A DNA stretch of 64,000 nucleotides from Leptospira sp. (GTDB taxonomy: Bacteria > Spirochaetota > Leptospiria > Leptospirales > Leptospiraceae): contig JAWXAQ010000016.1 of the NCBI GenBank assembly GCA_034439575.1, positions 1 to 64,000 of the forward strand, given 5' to 3'. Shown piece by piece: positions 22,264 through 40,589 of the stretch. Every line of letters begins with the position of its first letter. The first letter of the stretch is position 1. The position numbers were made by a program, and so were the translations under genes. The notes under the pieces were generated by a model, which saw only the letters and a list, made by a program, of their open reading frames with translations, made no database searches and was not told the DNA's origin.

Positions 22264-23340
22264 ATGAGAATATATATTGCACTAACACTAAATTTATTTG
22301 CAGCGCCTTTAGGATTTTTAATATTACGAGATTTTAAACTTTTCCTATACTTCTTATCTTATTATTTTCTGGCTATTCCTGTATACATTCTAATATTCTT
22401 ATTATCTTTTTTTGACAAACCAATAGTTATATTTTCTTTTTTAGCCTTTGTATTTTTCTTACAATATTCAATTGTTATTTTTTTTACTATAAAGTCGTTT
22501 AAAACGTTACATAAAAGACAAAAATTAAATCATTTGAATCCATTTATAAATTTTGTAATGATTTTTTCTTTGATAATAACGATTCTGATTGCTGAAGATT
22601 ATATTAAAGATTTTATTAAAAAGACTTTCATTTCTGCAAATAATATTACTTCTGCATCTTCCGAACCATCTTTACAATTAGGTGATTATGTTTTTATAAA
22701 ACGCAGTTTTTTCAATATTGAAAGAGGAGATTTTGTCACATTCGATATTAAAAATCCAATGGATATAGAATCTAAATCTATCGTAAAACGTGTGATTGCG
22801 ATCCCCGGTGATAAAATTAAAATCCAATTAGAAACATTAGCTAATGGTAATAAAGTATATAAGATTATACTAAATGATATTCCATTAGAAATTGAAAAAA
22901 CCGATTCTATTCCGAATCTTGATTCCATGGATGTAAACTTAGAAGGAAAGTATTTTTTTAAGGAAACTTCCGGTGAAAAATATTATTATACAATGTATTC
23001 AAATTCTTTGCCCAATGAAAAATTTAATCCGTATTTAAATAAGGAGATAATTCTAAATCCTGATGAGTATTTTGTTTTAGGTGATAATCGATTTGACTCA
23101 CACGATTCAATTTCTTTTGGACCTATAAAATCACATGATATAACTGGTAAGCTATTTTTTAAATATTTTTCCATAAATTACAAAGATTTATCTTGCGATG
23201 TTCATTCAAATAACTTTGATCAAAATTCGCATTTTGAACCTTCTTGTCCGACTGATTGGTATAACCGACTTCTTCGTTCAAAAATACGTTTCCATAGTCT
23301 TGGCAATAGAGGCTATTATGATGTACACGAAGTGAAATAA
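22264..23340 (+). CDS. lepB: Signal peptidase I with an extended N-terminal TM region
   Basis: SASSEPSL catalytic Ser box, IVKRVIAIPGD, YFVLGDNRFDSHDS. Confidence 0.88.
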   Translation: MRIYIALTLNLFAAPLGFLILRDFKLFLYFLSYYFLAIPVYILIFLLSFFDKPIVIFSFLAFVFFLQYSIVIFFTIKSFKTLHKRQKLNHLNPFINFVMIFSLIITILIAEDYIKDFIKKTFISANNITSASSEPSLQLGDYVFIKRSFFNIERGDFVTFDIKNPMDIESKSIVKRVIAIPGDKIKIQLETLANGNKVYKIILNDIPLEIEKTDSIPNLDSMDVNLEGKYFFKETSGEKYYYTMYSNSLPNEKFNPYLNKEIILNPDEYFVLGDNRFDSHDSISFGPIKSHDITGKLFFKYFSINYKDLSCDVHSNNFDQNSHFEPSCPTDWYNRLLRSKIRFHSLGNRGYYDVHEVK

Positions 23341-34373: not shown

Positions 34374-35018
34374 TTAAGTTAAAAGTCCGACACCCATTTG
34401 TTGTAGAAGTTGGATGAAAAGTTCTTCATCTGTTTTTTTCAATCCTGACTGTTTTTGTTTTGTGTCTATTCCCTTCAAACGTCCATCCTGAACTAACATC
34501 ACATAACCATGAGTAAATGACCAAATTAGATAAGCCATTTCTTTGGGGTCTCCTTTTTTTATGATTCCCTTAGATTGTAATATCATCACTGCGGATAATA
34601 AAACTTCAAAAGATTCAAGGCCCGCTTTTTCACAAGCTGGGTATAAAGTTATGTCTTCAATGTTATTCGAAAACATAAGTCTATAAATTTCAGGATTTTC
34701 ATTTGCAAAACGCAAATATGATACTCCCATTGAAATAAACGATTCTTTAGGATGAATTTCTATACCATTTCTACCTTCGAGTAACGCGATTTTAAATTGT
34801 GTAAAACCGATTTCTATAAGACTTGCGAGTAGTATCTCTTTTTTGGCAAAATGTTTGTTTGGTGCAGAGTGAGTCACACCTAACTTTTTGGCAATTTCTC
34901 GTAAACTTAGCGACTCTACTCCTTTTTTTTTAATCCAAACCATAGATTCATTTAGAATCGCTTCTCGCAAATTCCCATGATGATAGCCTTTTCTTGGTTT
35001 ACGCCTCTCTAAGATCAT
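34374..35018 (-). CDS. TetR/AcrR-family regulator (WHG-like C-terminal domain)
   Basis: YHHGNLREA, LSLREIAKKLGVTHSAPNKHF, WSFTHG. Start is probably ATG 35018, because the longer ORF runs through the operator/promoter region. Confidence 0.92.
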   Translation of the reverse strand: MILERRKPRKGYHHGNLREAILNESMVWIKKKGVESLSLREIAKKLGVTHSAPNKHFAKKEILLASLIEIGFTQFKIALLEGRNGIEIHPKESFISMGVSYLRFANENPEIYRLMFSNNIEDITLYPACEKAGLESFEVLLSAVMILQSKGIIKKGDPKEMAYLIWSFTHGYVMLVQDGRLKGIDTKQKQSGLKKTDEELFIQLLQQMGVGLLT

Positions 35019-35038
35019 GTGTTCAGGAAAAACTAAAT

Positions 35039-35115
35039 ATAGATATTGTCTACTTTTTTCTATTGACATTCGTTGCGATGTAGCCATGGTCTACTTTATT
35101 GTAGTCGATGTCTAC
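35039..35115. promoter_or_regulatory. Three palindromic GTAG-N7-CTAC sites (candidate TetR operators) flanking and overlapping a TTGACA promoter
   Basis: 35039-35053 ATAGatattgtCTAC, 35080-35094 GTAGccatggtCTAC, 35101-35115 GTAGtcgatgtCTAC; TTGACA at 35063-35068. Confidence 0.75.
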
Positions 35116-35128
35116 ATATGGAGTAAAA

Positions 35129-35740
35129 ATGTTAAGTTTAAAAAATACGCCTTTATTATTGTTTTTATTAATTTTCGATTCATTCTGCAATCAATCTCAG
35201 GATTTAGAAAGCCCTGTTTTATTAACAAAGGGAGTTCAAATTGAACAATCTTTTCCAATTAAAGAAATATTTATCCGTGGTAGGGTTGTTCGACAGTCAA
35301 AAAAAAATCTCTATTCTTTAGCATTTGATTCCAATTACACAGAACAAATATTAAAATATAAACCTAGTAAAATTCAAGTTAAACTCCCATATAACAATTC
35401 GCCAACATTTTTAGTGAATCTGAATTATATAAACAATGAGATTAAAAACAATTTTAATTTTCCTAAGGGCTGGATTGATTCTTCAGACTTGGAAGCTTAT
35501 TTTTATATAAACAATTCGCAAGGGTGGAATGTTCCTTTTGATTCCATCTACTCTCCATTTGGTGATGAGAAGTATATAATCAAATTAGTCGACGGCAAAG
35601 CTTTAAGAATACCAATAAATATTATTCGCCTATACAAAAATTCTGTAGTTATTTCCGGGAATATAGAAATGGGAGATATTTTAATAAATTCTAGGTTAGG
35701 TGAAATTGTGGATGGTATGAAAATTAAGGTAAAATTATGA
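35129..35740 (+). CDS. Short periplasmic adaptor (MFP)-like protein, probable lipoprotein
   Basis: RBS GGAG before ATG 35129; hydrophobic N-terminus ending FC; C-terminus VPFDSI..KYI..DGKA..GDILI..IVDGMKIKV resembles the MFP membrane-proximal region; ATGA overlap with the RND gene. Confidence 0.6.
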   Translation: MLSLKNTPLLLFLLIFDSFCNQSQDLESPVLLTKGVQIEQSFPIKEIFIRGRVVRQSKKNLYSLAFDSNYTEQILKYKPSKIQVKLPYNNSPTFLVNLNYINNEIKNNFNFPKGWIDSSDLEAYFYINNSQGWNVPFDSIYSPFGDEKYIIKLVDGKALRIPINIIRLYKNSVVISGNIEMGDILINSRLGEIVDGMKIKVKL

Positions 35741-38700
35741 AATTTGCAAATTTTATCTTAGAACGAAGAAGTCTGATTTTTACAATATTTGCGTTTTTTC
35801 TAATGCTCGGAATTTTAGAATTCATTGTTATGCCAAGGGAAGAAGACCCTAGGTTAAAAGAAAGATTTGGGGTTTTGAAAATAATTTATCCAGGCGCTTC
35901 TTTAGAGAATATGAAGCGCTTTGTAACTCTTCCGACAGAAGAGGTTTTAGCTGAAATTCCATCCATTAGAACATTAGAAATTCGTATTAGACCTGAAGTG
36001 ATGATCGCAGAAATCAGACTGCAAGATAGTCTGGGGAGCGAACAAGAGATAAATGATGCTTGGAAAAGAATTGAAGATGCGATAAAAAAGGCCGAATCAA
36101 AATATCCAATTGGTTTACAACCTTGGGATCTAAATCGAAGAGTGACTGAACAAGAAGCAATTTTGATAGCATTAACAGGATCCGATGATATTCTATATTT
36201 AAAGCATGAAATTGATACTTTGCGAAGTAGATTATTGCAAATTCAGAATGTGGCAAAAATAAATCGATTAGGCGATCCCGAAGAAGAAATTGAAATTTTT
36301 ATTCCAAAACAAACCTTAGAAGAGAAAGGGATATCAATTGGATTTTTTTCTAATTGGGTATCGACAGCTAACCATAGTATACCGCCAGGCGCGATGCCAT
36401 TAGATGGCAAAAAAGTTATAGTAAAAACAGACGGATGGTTCAATGATATCGAATCCATTTCTCGCTTAAGTATACCCTTACCAGGTGGTGAGTTAAAAAG
36501 TATTGGTGAAATTGGAGAAGTACATAAATTACCAAAATACCCTGTAGCGGAAATTATGCGCTCTCGTGGTCTCCCTGCAGTTGGTTTAGGAATCGTCGCT
36601 AAGCAAAATATCAACTTGATTCAATTCGGTAGGGATATTGAAGAGGAAGTGAACCAATGGCAAAAAACAAATCCAAACCTCAAAGTTGAAATAATCAATT
36701 CACAACCCAAATATGTTGCCAACCGTTTGTCTGATCTCGGATGGAATTTATTAACGGGTATTTTCATAGTCGCTTTAGTTTTAGTAAGTATGATGGGTTT
36801 TCGGATTGGAATTCTTTCCGCTATCATAGTCCCAGTCATTGCAATTATAAGTTTAGGCATTTTTGGTATGTTTGGTGGCGTTCTTCACCAAATTTCTATT
36901 GCTGCATTTGTTATGGCACTTGGATTATTGATTGATAATGTGATTGTCATATTAGAAAGCGTTCAAGAAAAAATAGATTCTGGATTAGAAATTATTGCTT
37001 CAGTTAAAGATACAATTTCAAGCCTAGCATTTCCTTTGTTAAGTGCTACTGGAACAACACTGGCATCTTTTATCCCACTTCTTGGTTCAAGTGGAAATTC
37101 TGCTGATTTCACTCGAGCGATTCCCATTATAAATATGCTGACTCTTTCTATTAGTTTTTTATTTGCCTTGTTTGTAACACCTCTACTTGGAAAGGCGTTT
37201 CTTAAGCCAAAGGTACATATTAAAGAAACATTTTATGAAAGAGTTTCTGAACGCATTGGAAAATCTATACCCGAATATCATAAATTAATTCTGCTTGTTT
37301 CAACATTTTTGTTTTTAATAGCAATGGCAGGATTTCGCTTTTTACCAAAGAAATTCTTTCCTGATGCAGATAGAGACCAGCTTATTTTAGATCTGAGAAT
37401 GCCGGAAGGTACAGACATTAATAAAACGGATGAAGTCGCTAAAGAAATTGAATCTTGGTTACGTAATGACAATAGACTTAAGTCAGTGATTGTTTTTGTA
37501 GGGCGAAGTGTTCCGCTTTTTTATTATAATTTAAATCAATCACCTAATAGTCCTCATATAGCACAATTTATTTTAAACCTTAAGGACATTAAAGATAAGG
37601 ATTCTTTTAAACAAAATTTTCAAAATATAATTGATGAAAAACTAATTTATGGAAATGCAATTTTACAAGAACTGAAACAAGGTCCACCTGTCAAAGCGCC
37701 TATTGAGGTTAGGCTATACAGTGAGAGTAAAGAAGACTTATTCAAATCCCATCAATTATTATTAAAAACTATATACCAAGTTCCAGGATTAAAAGATATC
37801 CGGTCAGATTTAGGCATAGGCTCACCAGTATTAAATTGGGAAAGTGATGATGCGTCACTTTCAAGGTATCGGGCATCGCGTTCCGATGTAACTTTGTCTA
37901 TACTGTCTCAGACGAGAGGAATACCTATTGGATATTATAGAGCTGGAGAAAGGCCCATACCTATAATTTTTAGGACGCTTGAAAAAGAACTGATTTCACC
38001 TAACAAAATCTCTGAGAGTCCGCTTTTGTCTACTCGCACAGAAATTCTAAAATTATCTTCCGTATCTCATCTAAGCTTAAATTGGGAACCTGCAATATTA
38101 TATAGAAGGAATCGAGAAACAGCAATTAATTACTACGCTGAAGTTAACAAAGAATTAACTGCAGATAAAGCTACCCTAATTATAAGAAAAAAATTGGAAC
38201 TAGAAAAATTTCCTAAGTCTGTTCGGTGGGAATTTGGTGGAGAACAAGCAGAATCAGGGAGTGCCAATCAATCTCTAATTGCAGTAGCACCCTTAGGAAT
38301 TATGATTCTTATTTCGTTTTTACTTCTTGAATTTGGAAGTTGGAAAAAAACGGGAATTATTTTGCTTACAGTTCCTTTATCAATGATTGGTGTAGTCCCT
38401 GGATTATTTTTATCAAGTCAAAGTTTCGGTTTTTTGTCTCTACTCGGAATATTCGCATTAGTTGGAATTGTAGTTAATAATGGGATCCTGATTTTAGATT
38501 ATATTGGAAAAGCTACTTCTAGAGGAGAACCCATTGAGACTGCGATACAATATTCACTTTCTAAGAGAATACGACCAATTTTACTCACTACTTTAACAAC
38601 GATTGCAGGTTTGATACCATTAGCATTTACAGATGCTACATTATGGCCTCCATTTGCATGGACGATGATTGCGGGATTACTTGTTTCCACATTTTTAACG

Positions 38701-40068
38701 TTATTTGTGATACCCGCAGCTACGTATTTAGCATACGTTGATAAATCAAAGCAACAAACAAAAGTTAATATATTTAATTTAGGTAATATTCGTAAATTGA
38801 TCTCTTTTATTTTTTTAGGAAGTTTGTTTTCATTTGCAGTATTAGATGTTCATGCAGATCCATTAATTTTGAACTGGAAGGACATTGTCAAAAAAGCCGA
38901 AGAATCGCCTCGTGTCAAAATTGCATGGGAAGAATGGAAAAGAAAGAATTTAGAAAAAGAAAAATTTGAACGTGCCGTCTATTATCCAAAACTCGGATTG
39001 TCAGTTGAACATATTGATAGAAATAAAACTCTTTTTCCAAACGCATCTATTCCAGTTGTCGCCGGAGTTAACCCAAGTTATTGGACTGGGGGAGTGGAAT
39101 TACAACAGACATTATTTGATCCTTCAAATTGGTTTGCTATTTCAAAAGTATTAGATTATTCGGAAGAAGCTCAAAGATTATTGTCTTATCGGGCAAAGGA
39201 AACTTCACAATCAGAAGCATTGATATCATTCGTAATGATCCATCGAATCAAGATTAAAAAAAATAATTTAACAGAATTAAAACAATCCTTGAGCATTCGG
39301 TTTGCCGAGTTAAAAAGACTCTATGCACTAGGTCAGGTGACTGAGAGCGAATTATTTCGCATTGAACAAGCGATAAACCAAGCGAAAATTTCTTTAGAGG
39401 AGTTAGAGGAAAAAGAGAAAATATCTATCTTAGTTTTAAAACGAAATCTTGGAATTGATGATGATATAAACATTGGAATTCTACCTAAAGAAGAAGAATT
39501 AAATATCATAATTAAAGAAGAAGATAAACCAGAGCGATTGGAATTAATGGCGATTCGAAATAAGCTCTTGGCACTGCAAGAAAAGAAAAAATCAATCGAA
39601 TATGAAGCATTACCTAAGTTAGTTGCCAAAGGTAGCTACATATACTTAAACAACAATCAATTTAACACAGATAATTGGGCTCAGTTATCACTCGGAGTAA
39701 GTATGAATCCATTCGATGGAGGAGTTCGAAAAATTAGAGAAGAAGAAACCGAATCTGAAATTCGTACTGCCAAAGAGGAATTCAATGATCTAATTCGCGC
39801 TTTGACTTTAGAAAAAGAAGATTCATTAACCCAAGTTAAAGTAAAAAAAAATGAAGTCCAAGTTCGTCAAATGAATGTATCCAAAGCACGCTTGGCATCG
39901 CGCAAAGAATATGAAAGGGTAAAGACTGGCAGATCAAATATCAATTCATGGATTGATGCTGAAATTCTTTTTTCAGAAGAGAATGATAGGTTCGAAATGA
40001 GTAAAATCGATTTATTGGAGCGAATGATTCGTTATCGAAATGTGATCGGTGTAAGATACGATACTTAA
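35737..40068 (+). CDS. RND (AcrB-like) permease fused to a TolC-like outer-membrane factor
   Basis: About 1000-aa RND core (PREEDP, ALGLLIDNVIVILE, GIVVNNGILI, RIRPILLTTLTT), then an OEP-like helical domain (YYPKLGLS..QTLFD, ALPKLVAK..NPFDGG). Confidence 0.9.
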   Translation: MKFANFILERRSLIFTIFAFFLMLGILEFIVMPREEDPRLKERFGVLKIIYPGASLENMKRFVTLPTEEVLAEIPSIRTLEIRIRPEVMIAEIRLQDSLGSEQEINDAWKRIEDAIKKAESKYPIGLQPWDLNRRVTEQEAILIALTGSDDILYLKHEIDTLRSRLLQIQNVAKINRLGDPEEEIEIFIPKQTLEEKGISIGFFSNWVSTANHSIPPGAMPLDGKKVIVKTDGWFNDIESISRLSIPLPGGELKSIGEIGEVHKLPKYPVAEIMRSRGLPAVGLGIVAKQNINLIQFGRDIEEEVNQWQKTNPNLKVEIINSQPKYVANRLSDLGWNLLTGIFIVALVLVSMMGFRIGILSAIIVPVIAIISLGIFGMFGGVLHQISIAAFVMALGLLIDNVIVILESVQEKIDSGLEIIASVKDTISSLAFPLLSATGTTLASFIPLLGSSGNSADFTRAIPIINMLTLSISFLFALFVTPLLGKAFLKPKVHIKETFYERVSERIGKSIPEYHKLILLVSTFLFLIAMAGFRFLPKKFFPDADRDQLILDLRMPEGTDINKTDEVAKEIESWLRNDNRLKSVIVFVGRSVPLFYYNLNQSPNSPHIAQFILNLKDIKDKDSFKQNFQNIIDEKLIYGNAILQELKQGPPVKAPIEVRLYSESKEDLFKSHQLLLKTIYQVPGLKDIRSDLGIGSPVLNWESDDASLSRYRASRSDVTLSILSQTRGIPIGYYRAGERPIPIIFRTLEKELISPNKISESPLLSTRTEILKLSSVSHLSLNWEPAILYRRNRETAINYYAEVNKELTADKATLIIRKKLELEKFPKSVRWEFGGEQAESGSANQSLIAVAPLGIMILISFLLLEFGSWKKTGIILLTVPLSMIGVVPGLFLSSQSFGFLSLLGIFALVGIVVNNGILILDYIGKATSRGEPIETAIQYSLSKRIRPILLTTLTTIAGLIPLAFTDATLWPPFAWTMIAGLLVSTFLTLFVIPAATYLAYVDKSKQQTKVNIFNLGNIRKLISFIFLGSLFSFAVLDVHADPLILNWKDIVKKAEESPRVKIAWEEWKRKNLEKEKFERAVYYPKLGLSVEHIDRNKTLFPNASIPVVAGVNPSYWTGGVELQQTLFDPSNWFAISKVLDYSEEAQRLLSYRAKETSQSEALISFVMIHRIKIKKNNLTELKQSLSIRFAELKRLYALGQVTESELFRIEQAINQAKISLEELEEKEKISILVLKRNLGIDDDINIGILPKEEELNIIIKEEDKPERLELMAIRNKLLALQEKKKSIEYEALPKLVAKGSYIYLNNNQFNTDNWAQLSLGVSMNPFDGGVRKIREEETESEIRTAKEEFNDLIRALTLEKEDSLTQVKVKKNEVQVRQMNVSKARLASRKEYERVKTGRSNINSWIDAEILFSEENDRFEMSKIDLLERMIRYRNVIGVRYDT

Positions 40069-40157: not shown

Positions 40158-40589
40158 ATGAATACAAATATTAAAACTATCATATTGAGCATTTTTTTGG
40201 CTCAATCCCAACTATATGCTATTGATTTGGATGTGGAAATTCAAAATAGAAAATCAAATTCTTCAAGAATCAGTTGCGGACTTTTTGAATCTCCGAATGG
40301 ATTTCCATCTGATTCCGAAAAAAGATTAATGGGAACGATTGCAGAAGTTGGATCAAATCAAACACCAGTTTGTCGCTTTAAGGGATTGGTAGCAAAGAAA
40401 TATGCTGTCGCTGTTTTAGAAGATCTAAATGGAAACGGAACGATGGATAAAACATTGATCGGTTTCCCAAAGGAGCCATGGGGAGTATCAAATAACGCGC
40501 CAATGCATACATTCGGACCACCCACTTTTGAAGAAGCTAATTTTCCACTAACAAAGAATATGTTAATACAAATTAAACTAAACCAGTAA
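40158..40589 (+). CDS. Secreted DUF2141-family protein
   Basis: Signal peptide; YAVAVLEDLNGNGTMD..GFPKEPWGVSNN..GPPTFEEA. Confidence 0.88.
   Translation: MNTNIKTIILSIFLAQSQLYAIDLDVEIQNRKSNSSRISCGLFESPNGFPSDSEKRLMGTIAEVGSNQTPVCRFKGLVAKKYAVAVLEDLNGNGTMDKTLIGFPKEPWGVSNNAPMHTFGPPTFEEANFPLTKNMLIQIKLNQ

Follow-up and report, generated by a model that had tools for sequence, protein, structure and literature searches.

A Leptospira gene that joins an RND efflux permease to a TolC-type channel through a signal-peptide-like segment: a probable two-membrane precursor

The window analysed here—a stretch of 64,000 nucleotides (nt) from Leptospira sp., contig JAWXAQ010000016.1, positions 1 to 64,000—carries a gene in which an RND efflux pump and a TolC-type outer-membrane channel are encoded together. 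The open reading frame (ORF) lies at 35737-40068 on the forward strand, starts with ATG and encodes a product of 1443 amino acids (aa). A single reading frame here runs from a permease with 12 transmembrane (TM) helices, through a basic linker and a segment resembling a signal peptide, to a TolC-type protomer that is complete. Pfam matched ACR_tran over residues 4-994 (E 2.7e-118) and, further along the chain, OEP in two separate stretches (E 5.6e-20). The in-frame RND-TolC fusion reported in a preliminary description of this DNA is thus real, and the TolC-like domain which that description had placed straight after the segment proved to be a full TolC-type protomer by Pfam, AF2 modelling and fold matching. 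When the whole genome was scanned with OEP, both repeats of the fusion (38881-39426 and 39535-40050) fell inside one 1446-codon open frame; the remaining OEP matches were 11 stand-alone frames of 442-641 codons. In databases the fused homologues go by the name 'efflux RND transporter permease' or by the JGI label 'AcrB/outer membrane protein TolC'.

Four features make up the fusion, all on the forward strand. The RND permease domain occupies residues 1-998 (35737-38730) and is MexK/TriC-like, as judged from ACR_tran and from profile comparison with MexK and 6vej. It is followed after TM12 by the short basic linker, residues 999-1018 (38731-38790), with the sequence YVDKSKQQTKVNIFNLGNI; homology to RND proteins ends within this stretch, at about residue 1004-1010. 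Residues 1019-1040 (38791-38856) form a candidate internal signal peptide or 13th TM segment, RKLISFIFLGSLFSFAVLDVHA, after which the chain continues with DP. The TolC-type outer-membrane factor (OMF) domain, residues 1041-1443 plus the stop codon (38857-40068), is 403 aa long counted from the predicted cut between A1040 and D1041. Translation around the junction gives ...NIRKLISFIFLGSLFSFAVLDVHADPLILNWKD..., and the inter-domain stretch reads ...YLAYVDKSKQQTKVNIFNLGNIRKLISFIFLGSLFSFAVLDVHA, with DPLILNWKD... on the far side of the predicted cut. A codon ruler placed the first base of codon 1019 (cgt) at 38791 and the last base of codon 1040 (gca) at 38856, in agreement with the coordinates previously proposed for the segment.

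The permease half is an end-to-end member of its family: the ACR_tran match covers positions 2-1015 of the 1021-position profile, and a profile built from 28 fused homologues aligned with solved MexK over 4-1026 of its 1031 residues (E 3.2e-210). The same 28-protein profile matched 6vej, titled TriABC transporter, over 7-1011 (E 1.5e-200), with AcrB far behind (~1e-79). NCBIfam subfamily scores all fell under their cut-offs (for example, RND_permease_2 at 332 against 1250 bits), so that no named equivalog applies. Within the membrane part, D400 and N401 in TM4 (36934-36939) and N914 and N915 in TM10 (38476-38481) were invariant in the 28 fused homologues. At the presumed corresponding relay positions AcrB has D-D and K-N, so that proton coupling may differ in the fused pumps.

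The channel half is equally complete. An AF2 model of residues 1010-1443, made from a 19-sequence alignment, reached a mean pLDDT of 85 and showed four beta-strands (76-85, 105-118, 285-296 and 303-313, in model numbering) and two long helix pairs, with long helices at 120-188 and 321-387. Structural comparison with VIA-align gave Z scores of 27.2-24.1 to CusC, VceC, OprM, OprN and TolC over 384-392 residues, against 7.1 or less for unrelated rows of the same search. A single-sequence phmmer search of the C-terminal 444 aa against PDB sequences returned no match; a profile search of PDB sequences recovered OprN (E 2.5e-07) and TolC (3e-04). Model residue 36, that is aa 1045, aligned with residue 1 of the 1ek9 TolC chain, which places the start of the folded channel 4 residues past the predicted cut.

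The fusion is not an assembly error. Logan contigs from runs X5 and X6 matched the window exactly over 38699-38857 and 38500-38857, respectively, and a contig from run X9 covering 38598-39100 (503 bases) differed by 7 substitutions and 0 gaps, with no substitution creating a stop by codon count; this support comes from assembled contigs and not raw reads, and run X1, a possible source of this DNA, was not counted as independent. The preliminary description had raised the matter of a lost stop codon or frameshift between the two domains, and the contigs of other runs hold neither across the junction. In X9, which represents a close strain, the three amino-acid changes—V1001I, G1016D and S1029G (window positions 38737, 38783 and 38821)—all fall in the linker or signal-like segment, which fits low constraint there.

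Nor is the arrangement confined to one strain. We found 28 fused cluster representatives that cover the junction, 1427-1485 aa long and down to 23% identity; judged by its named homologues (L. yanagawae, L. jelokensis and L. ognonensis), the organism belongs with the saprophytic Leptospira. In a census of 114 Leptospiraceae genomes the channel clade (E<=1e-10) was present in 21, belonging to 6 of 14 genera; 16 of those 21 have open frames of 1434-1525 codons, and TM12, linker, hydrophobic segment and OEP lie in one frame in all 20 of the 21 whose locus was aligned.

The n-, h- and c-type organization that had been described for the segment, ending in V-x-A, is present at residues 1019-1040: R1019-K1020 are followed by the hydrophobic LISFIFLGSLFSFAVL and by DVHA, with V1038 at -3, A1040 at -1 and D1041, not a proline, at +1. 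Its location is not that typical of a Sec signal peptide, which is N-terminal; it begins at residue 1019, after 12 TM helices. Conservation around it was strikingly uneven. Mean identity to 15 close homologues was 0.23 for the linker and 0.21 for the segment, as compared with 0.67 for the RND domain, 0.68 for TM1 and 0.80 for TM12, and the opening 40 residues of the channel reached 0.76; among 1424 windows of 20 aa ranked from the least conserved the segment took rank 4, the 15 lowest all starting between 998 and 1025. The -1 position tells another story: by reading of the alignment, 15 of 16 close homologues have Ala there and the remaining one Ser, with D, E, Q or R at +1, and across 66 fused proteins a crude rule assigned -1 to A 55 times, to S 8 times, to G twice and to T once. 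A small residue at -1, whose conservation in homologues had been set beforehand as a test able to refute cleavage, is accordingly kept (A or S in 55 and 8 of the 66). Low identity combined with a constant small -1 residue is, as read from these alignments, how signal peptides evolve and not how packed helices do.

In three sister-genus loci (L030, L033 and L034) a Cys occurs late in the hydrophobic segment (LLCLLCSFTQ, LILCFGEIHS and LLPICIYS). These residues might be lipoprotein-type sites, in which case the freed channel could be lipidated, as in OprM-type channels. A lipoprotein (signal peptidase II) cut is ruled out for the protein of the window, which has no Cys in residues 1019-1045.

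Where such a segment could have come from was apparent from stand-alone relatives. When a profile of the junction and channel was searched against a library of 1.84 billion protein representatives, 14571 hits passed E<=0.001, of which 114 also passed E<=1e-30. Among the best 150 of the 14571 hits, 47 were 1300 aa or longer (fused), 69 were of stand-alone size (380-520 aa), 20 measured 521-1299 aa and 14 were under 380 aa. The relatives of stand-alone size have ordinary N-terminal signal peptides, colinear in the alignment with the internal segment of the fusions, and the two are, on this alignment, homologous; in the stand-alone channels such peptides have to be taken off. To compare them, we retained 66 fused proteins (2 of 68 were dropped, their profile match beginning too late) and 49 stand-alone ones (20 of the 69 were filtered as fragments or for want of a usable anchor). 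The two sets had nearly the same properties: Ala at -1 in 55 of 66 fused and 42 of 49 stand-alone proteins, median peak hydrophobicity of 2.8 and 2.7, median n-region charge of +2 and +1, and in both a folded domain that begins at a median of 4 residues from the site.

Fused members beyond the Leptospiraceae include metagenome-assembled genomes (MAGs) labelled Bdellovibrionales and Deltaproteobacteria and, by locus title, Thermoanaerobaculia, Acidobacteriota, Desulfobulbus, Gammaproteobacteria, Bacteriovoracaceae and Oligoflexia. One Acidobacteriota MAG (L053) instead has separate genes for a membrane fusion protein (MFP, 367 aa), an RND permease (1011 aa) and an OEP channel (427 aa) with its own signal peptide, the channel beginning MSSRLRFLPSLLIGLAAAAS; the RND part of the window's protein is 36% identical to this stand-alone permease over 1005 aa, with 4 gaps. 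There the RND stop and OEP start overlap by 1 nt (TGATG), so that loss of the stop would suffice to make a fusion. Among 15 relatives of one deltaproteobacterial fusion, 10 were single ORFs and 5 were split. A FastTree phylogeny of 115 channel-domain rows mingled the fused with the stand-alone ones and required 17 changes, or 14 once two rows starting inside TM12 were relabelled. Well-supported branches force at least 8, and label shuffles never gave as low a number as the observed tree (0 of 500). The fusion is thus widely distributed and, on this tree, of repeated origin, and the interchange suggests that both forms give the same mature products. A Myxococcota locus (L054) also has a stand-alone OEP, preceded by an ORF without a Pfam match. 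A scan with one stand-alone protein (P0157) yielded a 23%-identical Puia locus as its sole product, which was left unused.

Taken together, we consider that the product is probably a precursor of two proteins destined for different membranes, from which the channel is cut free by signal peptidase I (SPase I), and put this reading at roughly 80%. Cleavage at A1040/D1041 is what we infer from homology, geometry and evolution. The geometry follows from the dimensions given in PMC8277102: the RND periplasmic part measures 40+30 Å and the TolC alpha-barrel 100 Å, with the equatorial domain at mid alpha-barrel, where the N-terminus of OprM originates. A tethered channel N-terminus would, on these figures and a TolC-like assembly, need to sit ~120 Å from the inner membrane, and with only 4 linker residues an uncut chain would be unable to hold helix 13 in the inner and the barrel in the outer membrane. 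Further, an ordinary MFP stands beside the fusion in 7 of 10 loci of other phyla, as would suit a canonical tripartite complex, for which the channel has to be free. The genome encodes 4 SPase I homologues, and the signal peptides of its 11 stand-alone OEP frames, read by eye, are similar in style to the segment, 10 ending in [LI]-x-[ASG] and one in V-H-S.

Several points weigh against this reading. The case for cleavage is drawn from sequences and structures, and the crude -3/-1 rule, which scored 4 or more in 64 of 66 junctions, did so in 35 of 66 TM1 and 49 of 66 TM7 controls as well; since the controls also score high, the rule discriminates weakly and was given little weight. The uncharged span of the segment (median 21, n = 66) is no different from that in TM1 and TM7, control helices which are not cleaved. 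The geometric argument presumes a TolC-like assembly in the outer membrane. As for the tree, the cluster representatives that make up its rows were chosen by how well they scored against a profile of fused proteins, and FastTree was confronted with long branches and compositional skew; fragments of gene calls may account for some 'stand-alone' rows.

The strongest competitor is that no cleavage occurs, residues 1019-1040 being a permanent 13th TM anchor by which the TolC-like domain is tethered to the pump. An uncharged stretch of 20 residues (L1021-A1040), in line with the homologues and the helix controls, is what such an anchor would have, and with the adaptor reduced or absent in Leptospiraceae (see below) assembly may be unusual. 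We nevertheless judge a tether improbable: just 4 residues separate A1040 from the first TolC-aligned residue, and the domain makes a complete 4-strand contribution to a beta-barrel that, on the dimensions above, would fall short of the outer membrane if anchored. For an integral helix one would also expect conservation at the level of TM1 (0.68) or TM12 (0.80) and not 0.21, and since fused and split genes have replaced each other repeatedly, their products are likely to be equivalent.

A second competitor, to which we attach very little weight, is that an internal translation start just before the signal-like segment makes the channel, the long product being a by-product or failing to accumulate. 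In 4 of 20 loci an in-frame ATG does stand at the n-region (MIKKLF in L019, MAILGF in L025, MVILLL in L032 and MVKKNI in L035), and these ATGs, which may be a relic of an old start codon, lack a Shine-Dalgarno-like motif. No start codon is conserved over the 20 loci, and the sole AGGAG motifs (L028 and L031) precede an ATG inside the hydrophobic core. Between Y998 and P1042 the window itself has only TTG (codons 1021 and 1030), behind the basic residues and again without a Shine-Dalgarno-like motif. Promoter-like sites were no commoner in the region than in shuffles (20 against 25.3), and neither they nor terminator-like sites (7 against 3.9) mark the junction.

Finally, an error of sequencing or assembly, or a gene pair in decay with a lost stop codon, is a reading of the fusion that we effectively dismiss: the locus does decay in some strains, the orthologue being broken in one genome (G015) and in the matching locus L015, but contigs of other runs agree over the junction, 16 of 21 genomes, from 6 genera, have intact frames, fused proteins make up 47 of the best 150 cluster representatives, and both domains are kept at 0.67-0.69 identity among close homologues. 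In G015, the exception, an in-frame TAA interrupts the pump part and the reading frame shifts at about residue 1070-1080; the same breaks are present in L015, titled L. yanagawae serovar Saopaulo (the same orthologue appears at L003, L015 and L020), and the G015 copy is, judging from these breaks, decaying. A second L. yanagawae protein (P0007) is intact at 1443 aa, and the mini-adaptor gene described below is still intact in G015. In addition, G038 has one TAG and G125 a split N-terminus of the pump.

If the precursor is indeed cut, we envisage the following sequence of events. The RND part would insert co-translationally, with its C-terminal end and the basic linker left on the cytoplasmic side; next, the hydrophobic segment would enter the Sec channel in an N-in/C-out orientation and restart translocation, now of the 403-residue channel domain. 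SPase I would cut after V-H-A1040, and the freed channel, with the new N-terminus DPLILNW..., would move to the outer membrane and trimerise, whereas the signal segment would remain on the pump as a 13th helix. In this lineage, whose adaptor keeps just its two pump-binding domains, the channel would probably dock directly on the pump. The arrangement probably originated by loss of the stop in an overlapping pair of RND stop and OMF start, through which the N-terminal signal peptide of the channel became internal. Synthesis of pump and channel at 1:1 follows from the fusion; that this ratio is the selected benefit is conjecture only. One of the SPase I homologues lies in the window, at 22609-23175 on the forward strand (TIGR02227, E 7e-24) in a 365-codon frame, ~12.5 kb upstream of the fusion.

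Immediately upstream of the fusion, at 35108-35740 on the forward strand, lies a 210-aa ORF for a mini periplasmic adaptor lipoprotein, assigned by fold match and a lipoprotein-type N-terminus and overlapping the pump gene by 4 nt. Its start is probably the Met at 35129, where the profile match in the genome begins. The N-terminus, ...LLLFLLIFDSFC27, reads by eye as a lipoprotein signal, and Cys27, following the hydrophobic stretch, was invariant in 9 of 9 homologues. The protein has no Pfam match, including to HlyD or lipoyl families, in contrast to the adaptors beside fusions in other phyla, of which 7 of 7 matched HlyD; against NCBIfam RND_mfp it gave a weak match to profile positions 252-321 of 322. 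Its AF2 model (mean pLDDT 83, pTM 0.47 only) contains a single short helix (75-84) besides the signal peptide. VIA-align nonetheless returned Z scores of 12.8-11.1 to TMexC, AcrA, BesA and MexA over 166-185 residues, against 6.1 or less for unrelated rows (at Z 12.8-12.2 the aligned length was 168-185 residues), with ~170-175 residues of the mini-adaptor aligned across AcrA 36-377 and BesA 43-307 (of 275). Some 175 mature residues spread over AcrA 36-377 leave no room for a lipoyl or hairpin domain, and the mini-adaptor accordingly consists of just two domains, the beta-barrel and the membrane-proximal one.

Full-length matches to this stub were found in 12 of 114 Leptospiraceae genomes, all 12 of which have the fusion; in 11 the two genes are directly adjacent, and in the twelfth (G089) they lie on the same short contig, in register. 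Other matches to the mini-adaptor profile took in no more than the final 60-90 positions of frames of 470-511 codons, the size of ordinary adaptors. Sister genera g11 and g17 (five loci read) have the fusion and no stub: a divergent regulator-sized gene stands directly upstream, with no adaptor gene between. In both loci of distant genera that were checked further (L046/L028 and L048/L034) this regulator is a divergent TetR_C_33 protein, and the genes downstream of the fusion encode a thioesterase and a DUF1564 protein. Among ten fused loci of other phyla, 7 have an ordinary adaptor of 361-375 aa (HlyD_3, HlyD_D23) whose gene shares 4 nt with the fusion; in one a TetR gene takes its place, and the other two gave no information. 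In a Bacteriovoracaceae MAG (L083), the gene ahead of a 1431-aa fusion, on the same strand and 111 nt away, encodes a TetR protein of 197 aa, and no adaptor gene lies between the two; the locus resembles the adaptor-less ones of Leptospiraceae but belongs to another phylum.

These loci form a series, from a full adaptor in other phyla through a two-domain stub in this genus to none at the locus in sister genera. From the series we infer that in this lineage the channel probably docks directly on the pump. A more far-reaching proposal—specifically, that the fused precursor made the adaptor dispensable in Leptospiraceae, leaving a pump-binding stub in two genera and nothing at the locus in others, with the released channel docking directly on the pump and assembly relying on both being born from one chain—is speculative, and as a whole we regard it as rather doubtful.

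Two further genes flank the system. Upstream and divergent is a TetR-family regulator at 34374-35087 on the reverse strand (Pfam TetR_N, E 1.1e-06; TetR_C_33, E 4.8e-12); its ORF is 237 aa from the first ATG, and the true start may lie further in. Downstream, 89 nt after the fusion, a DUF2141 protein with a signal peptide is encoded at 40158-40589 on the forward strand (Pfam DUF2141, E 6e-26), and a 143-aa DUF2141 homologue follows the fusion by 82-89 nt in two other loci (L013 and L014). Whether this gene is a member of the system is uncertain.

RND pumps and their exit ducts are, in textbook accounts, separate proteins of two membranes. Functionally, the system described here is a tripartite RND system with altered gene structure, of which adaptor reduction is the most distinctive local feature. 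A single-chain gene conserved in several phyla would imply a bacterial polyprotein route in which an internal signal peptide, placed after 12 TM helices, launches an outer-membrane protein. It therefore bears on how Sec and signal peptidase handle internal signals, on the fate of a signal peptide left on the upstream protein, and on how pump and duct meet. The Leptospiraceae adaptor series in turn bears on the dispute between tip-to-tip and direct-docking models of pump assembly; were the adaptor-dispensable proposal true, it would provide a natural trans-envelope RND pump with a hairpin-less adaptor or none. Meanwhile, annotation of these proteins as 'RND permease' hides an outer-membrane channel.

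Among known systems, tripartite RND pumps (MexJK-OprM and TriABC-OpmH, with AcrAB-TolC as structural model) are built from the same three families in the same gene order. MexK and 6vej (TriABC) are the nearest solved structures to the RND part of the window, and the channel shares the TolC/CusC/OprM fold (Z 24-27). The divergent TetR regulator likewise agrees with what PMC8277102 describes for tripartite RND operons. Unlike in tripartite mfp-rnd-omf operons, pump and channel are here one ORF and the signal peptide of the channel is internal, and unlike the usual adaptors of ~350 mature residues, the mini-adaptor has ~180 and lacks the lipoyl and hairpin domains. Closest in adaptor architecture is BesABC of Borrelia burgdorferi, a spirochaete RND system whose adaptor BesA, according to PMC3807786 and PMC4446572, is without the alpha-hairpin that recruits the exit duct; in the fold comparison of the mini-adaptor, BesA scored with the leading structures (Z 12.6 over 171-173 residues). 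Hairpin-less pumps of this kind are presented in these reviews as fitting models of direct RND-channel contact and as incompatible with tip-to-tip assembly. The mini-adaptor goes further than BesA, ~100 of whose 263-275 solved residues have no counterpart in it and are read as the BesA lipoyl domain, and the BesB pump and BesC channel are, judged from their gene names alone, encoded separately. A search of the open literature, including PMC4827864, PMC4446572 and part of PMC8277102 and leaving subscription journals and supplements outside its scope, found no published description of a natural RND-OMF fusion.

For the proposed processing, parallels come from farther afield. In bunyavirus and pestivirus glycoprotein polyproteins, an internal hydrophobic signal restarts translocation and the host signal peptidase cuts the chain on the far side of the membrane; these polyproteins differ from the fusion in belonging to eukaryotic endoplasmic reticulum systems and in being unrelated proteins. 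A bacterial counterpart is the cytochrome b/c1 precursor FbcH of Bradyrhizobium japonicum, in which a polytopic protein is followed by an internal, cleaved signal that releases a second protein on the periplasmic side. Both products of FbcH stay in one inner-membrane complex, whereas in the Leptospira precursor the second product would go to the outer membrane.

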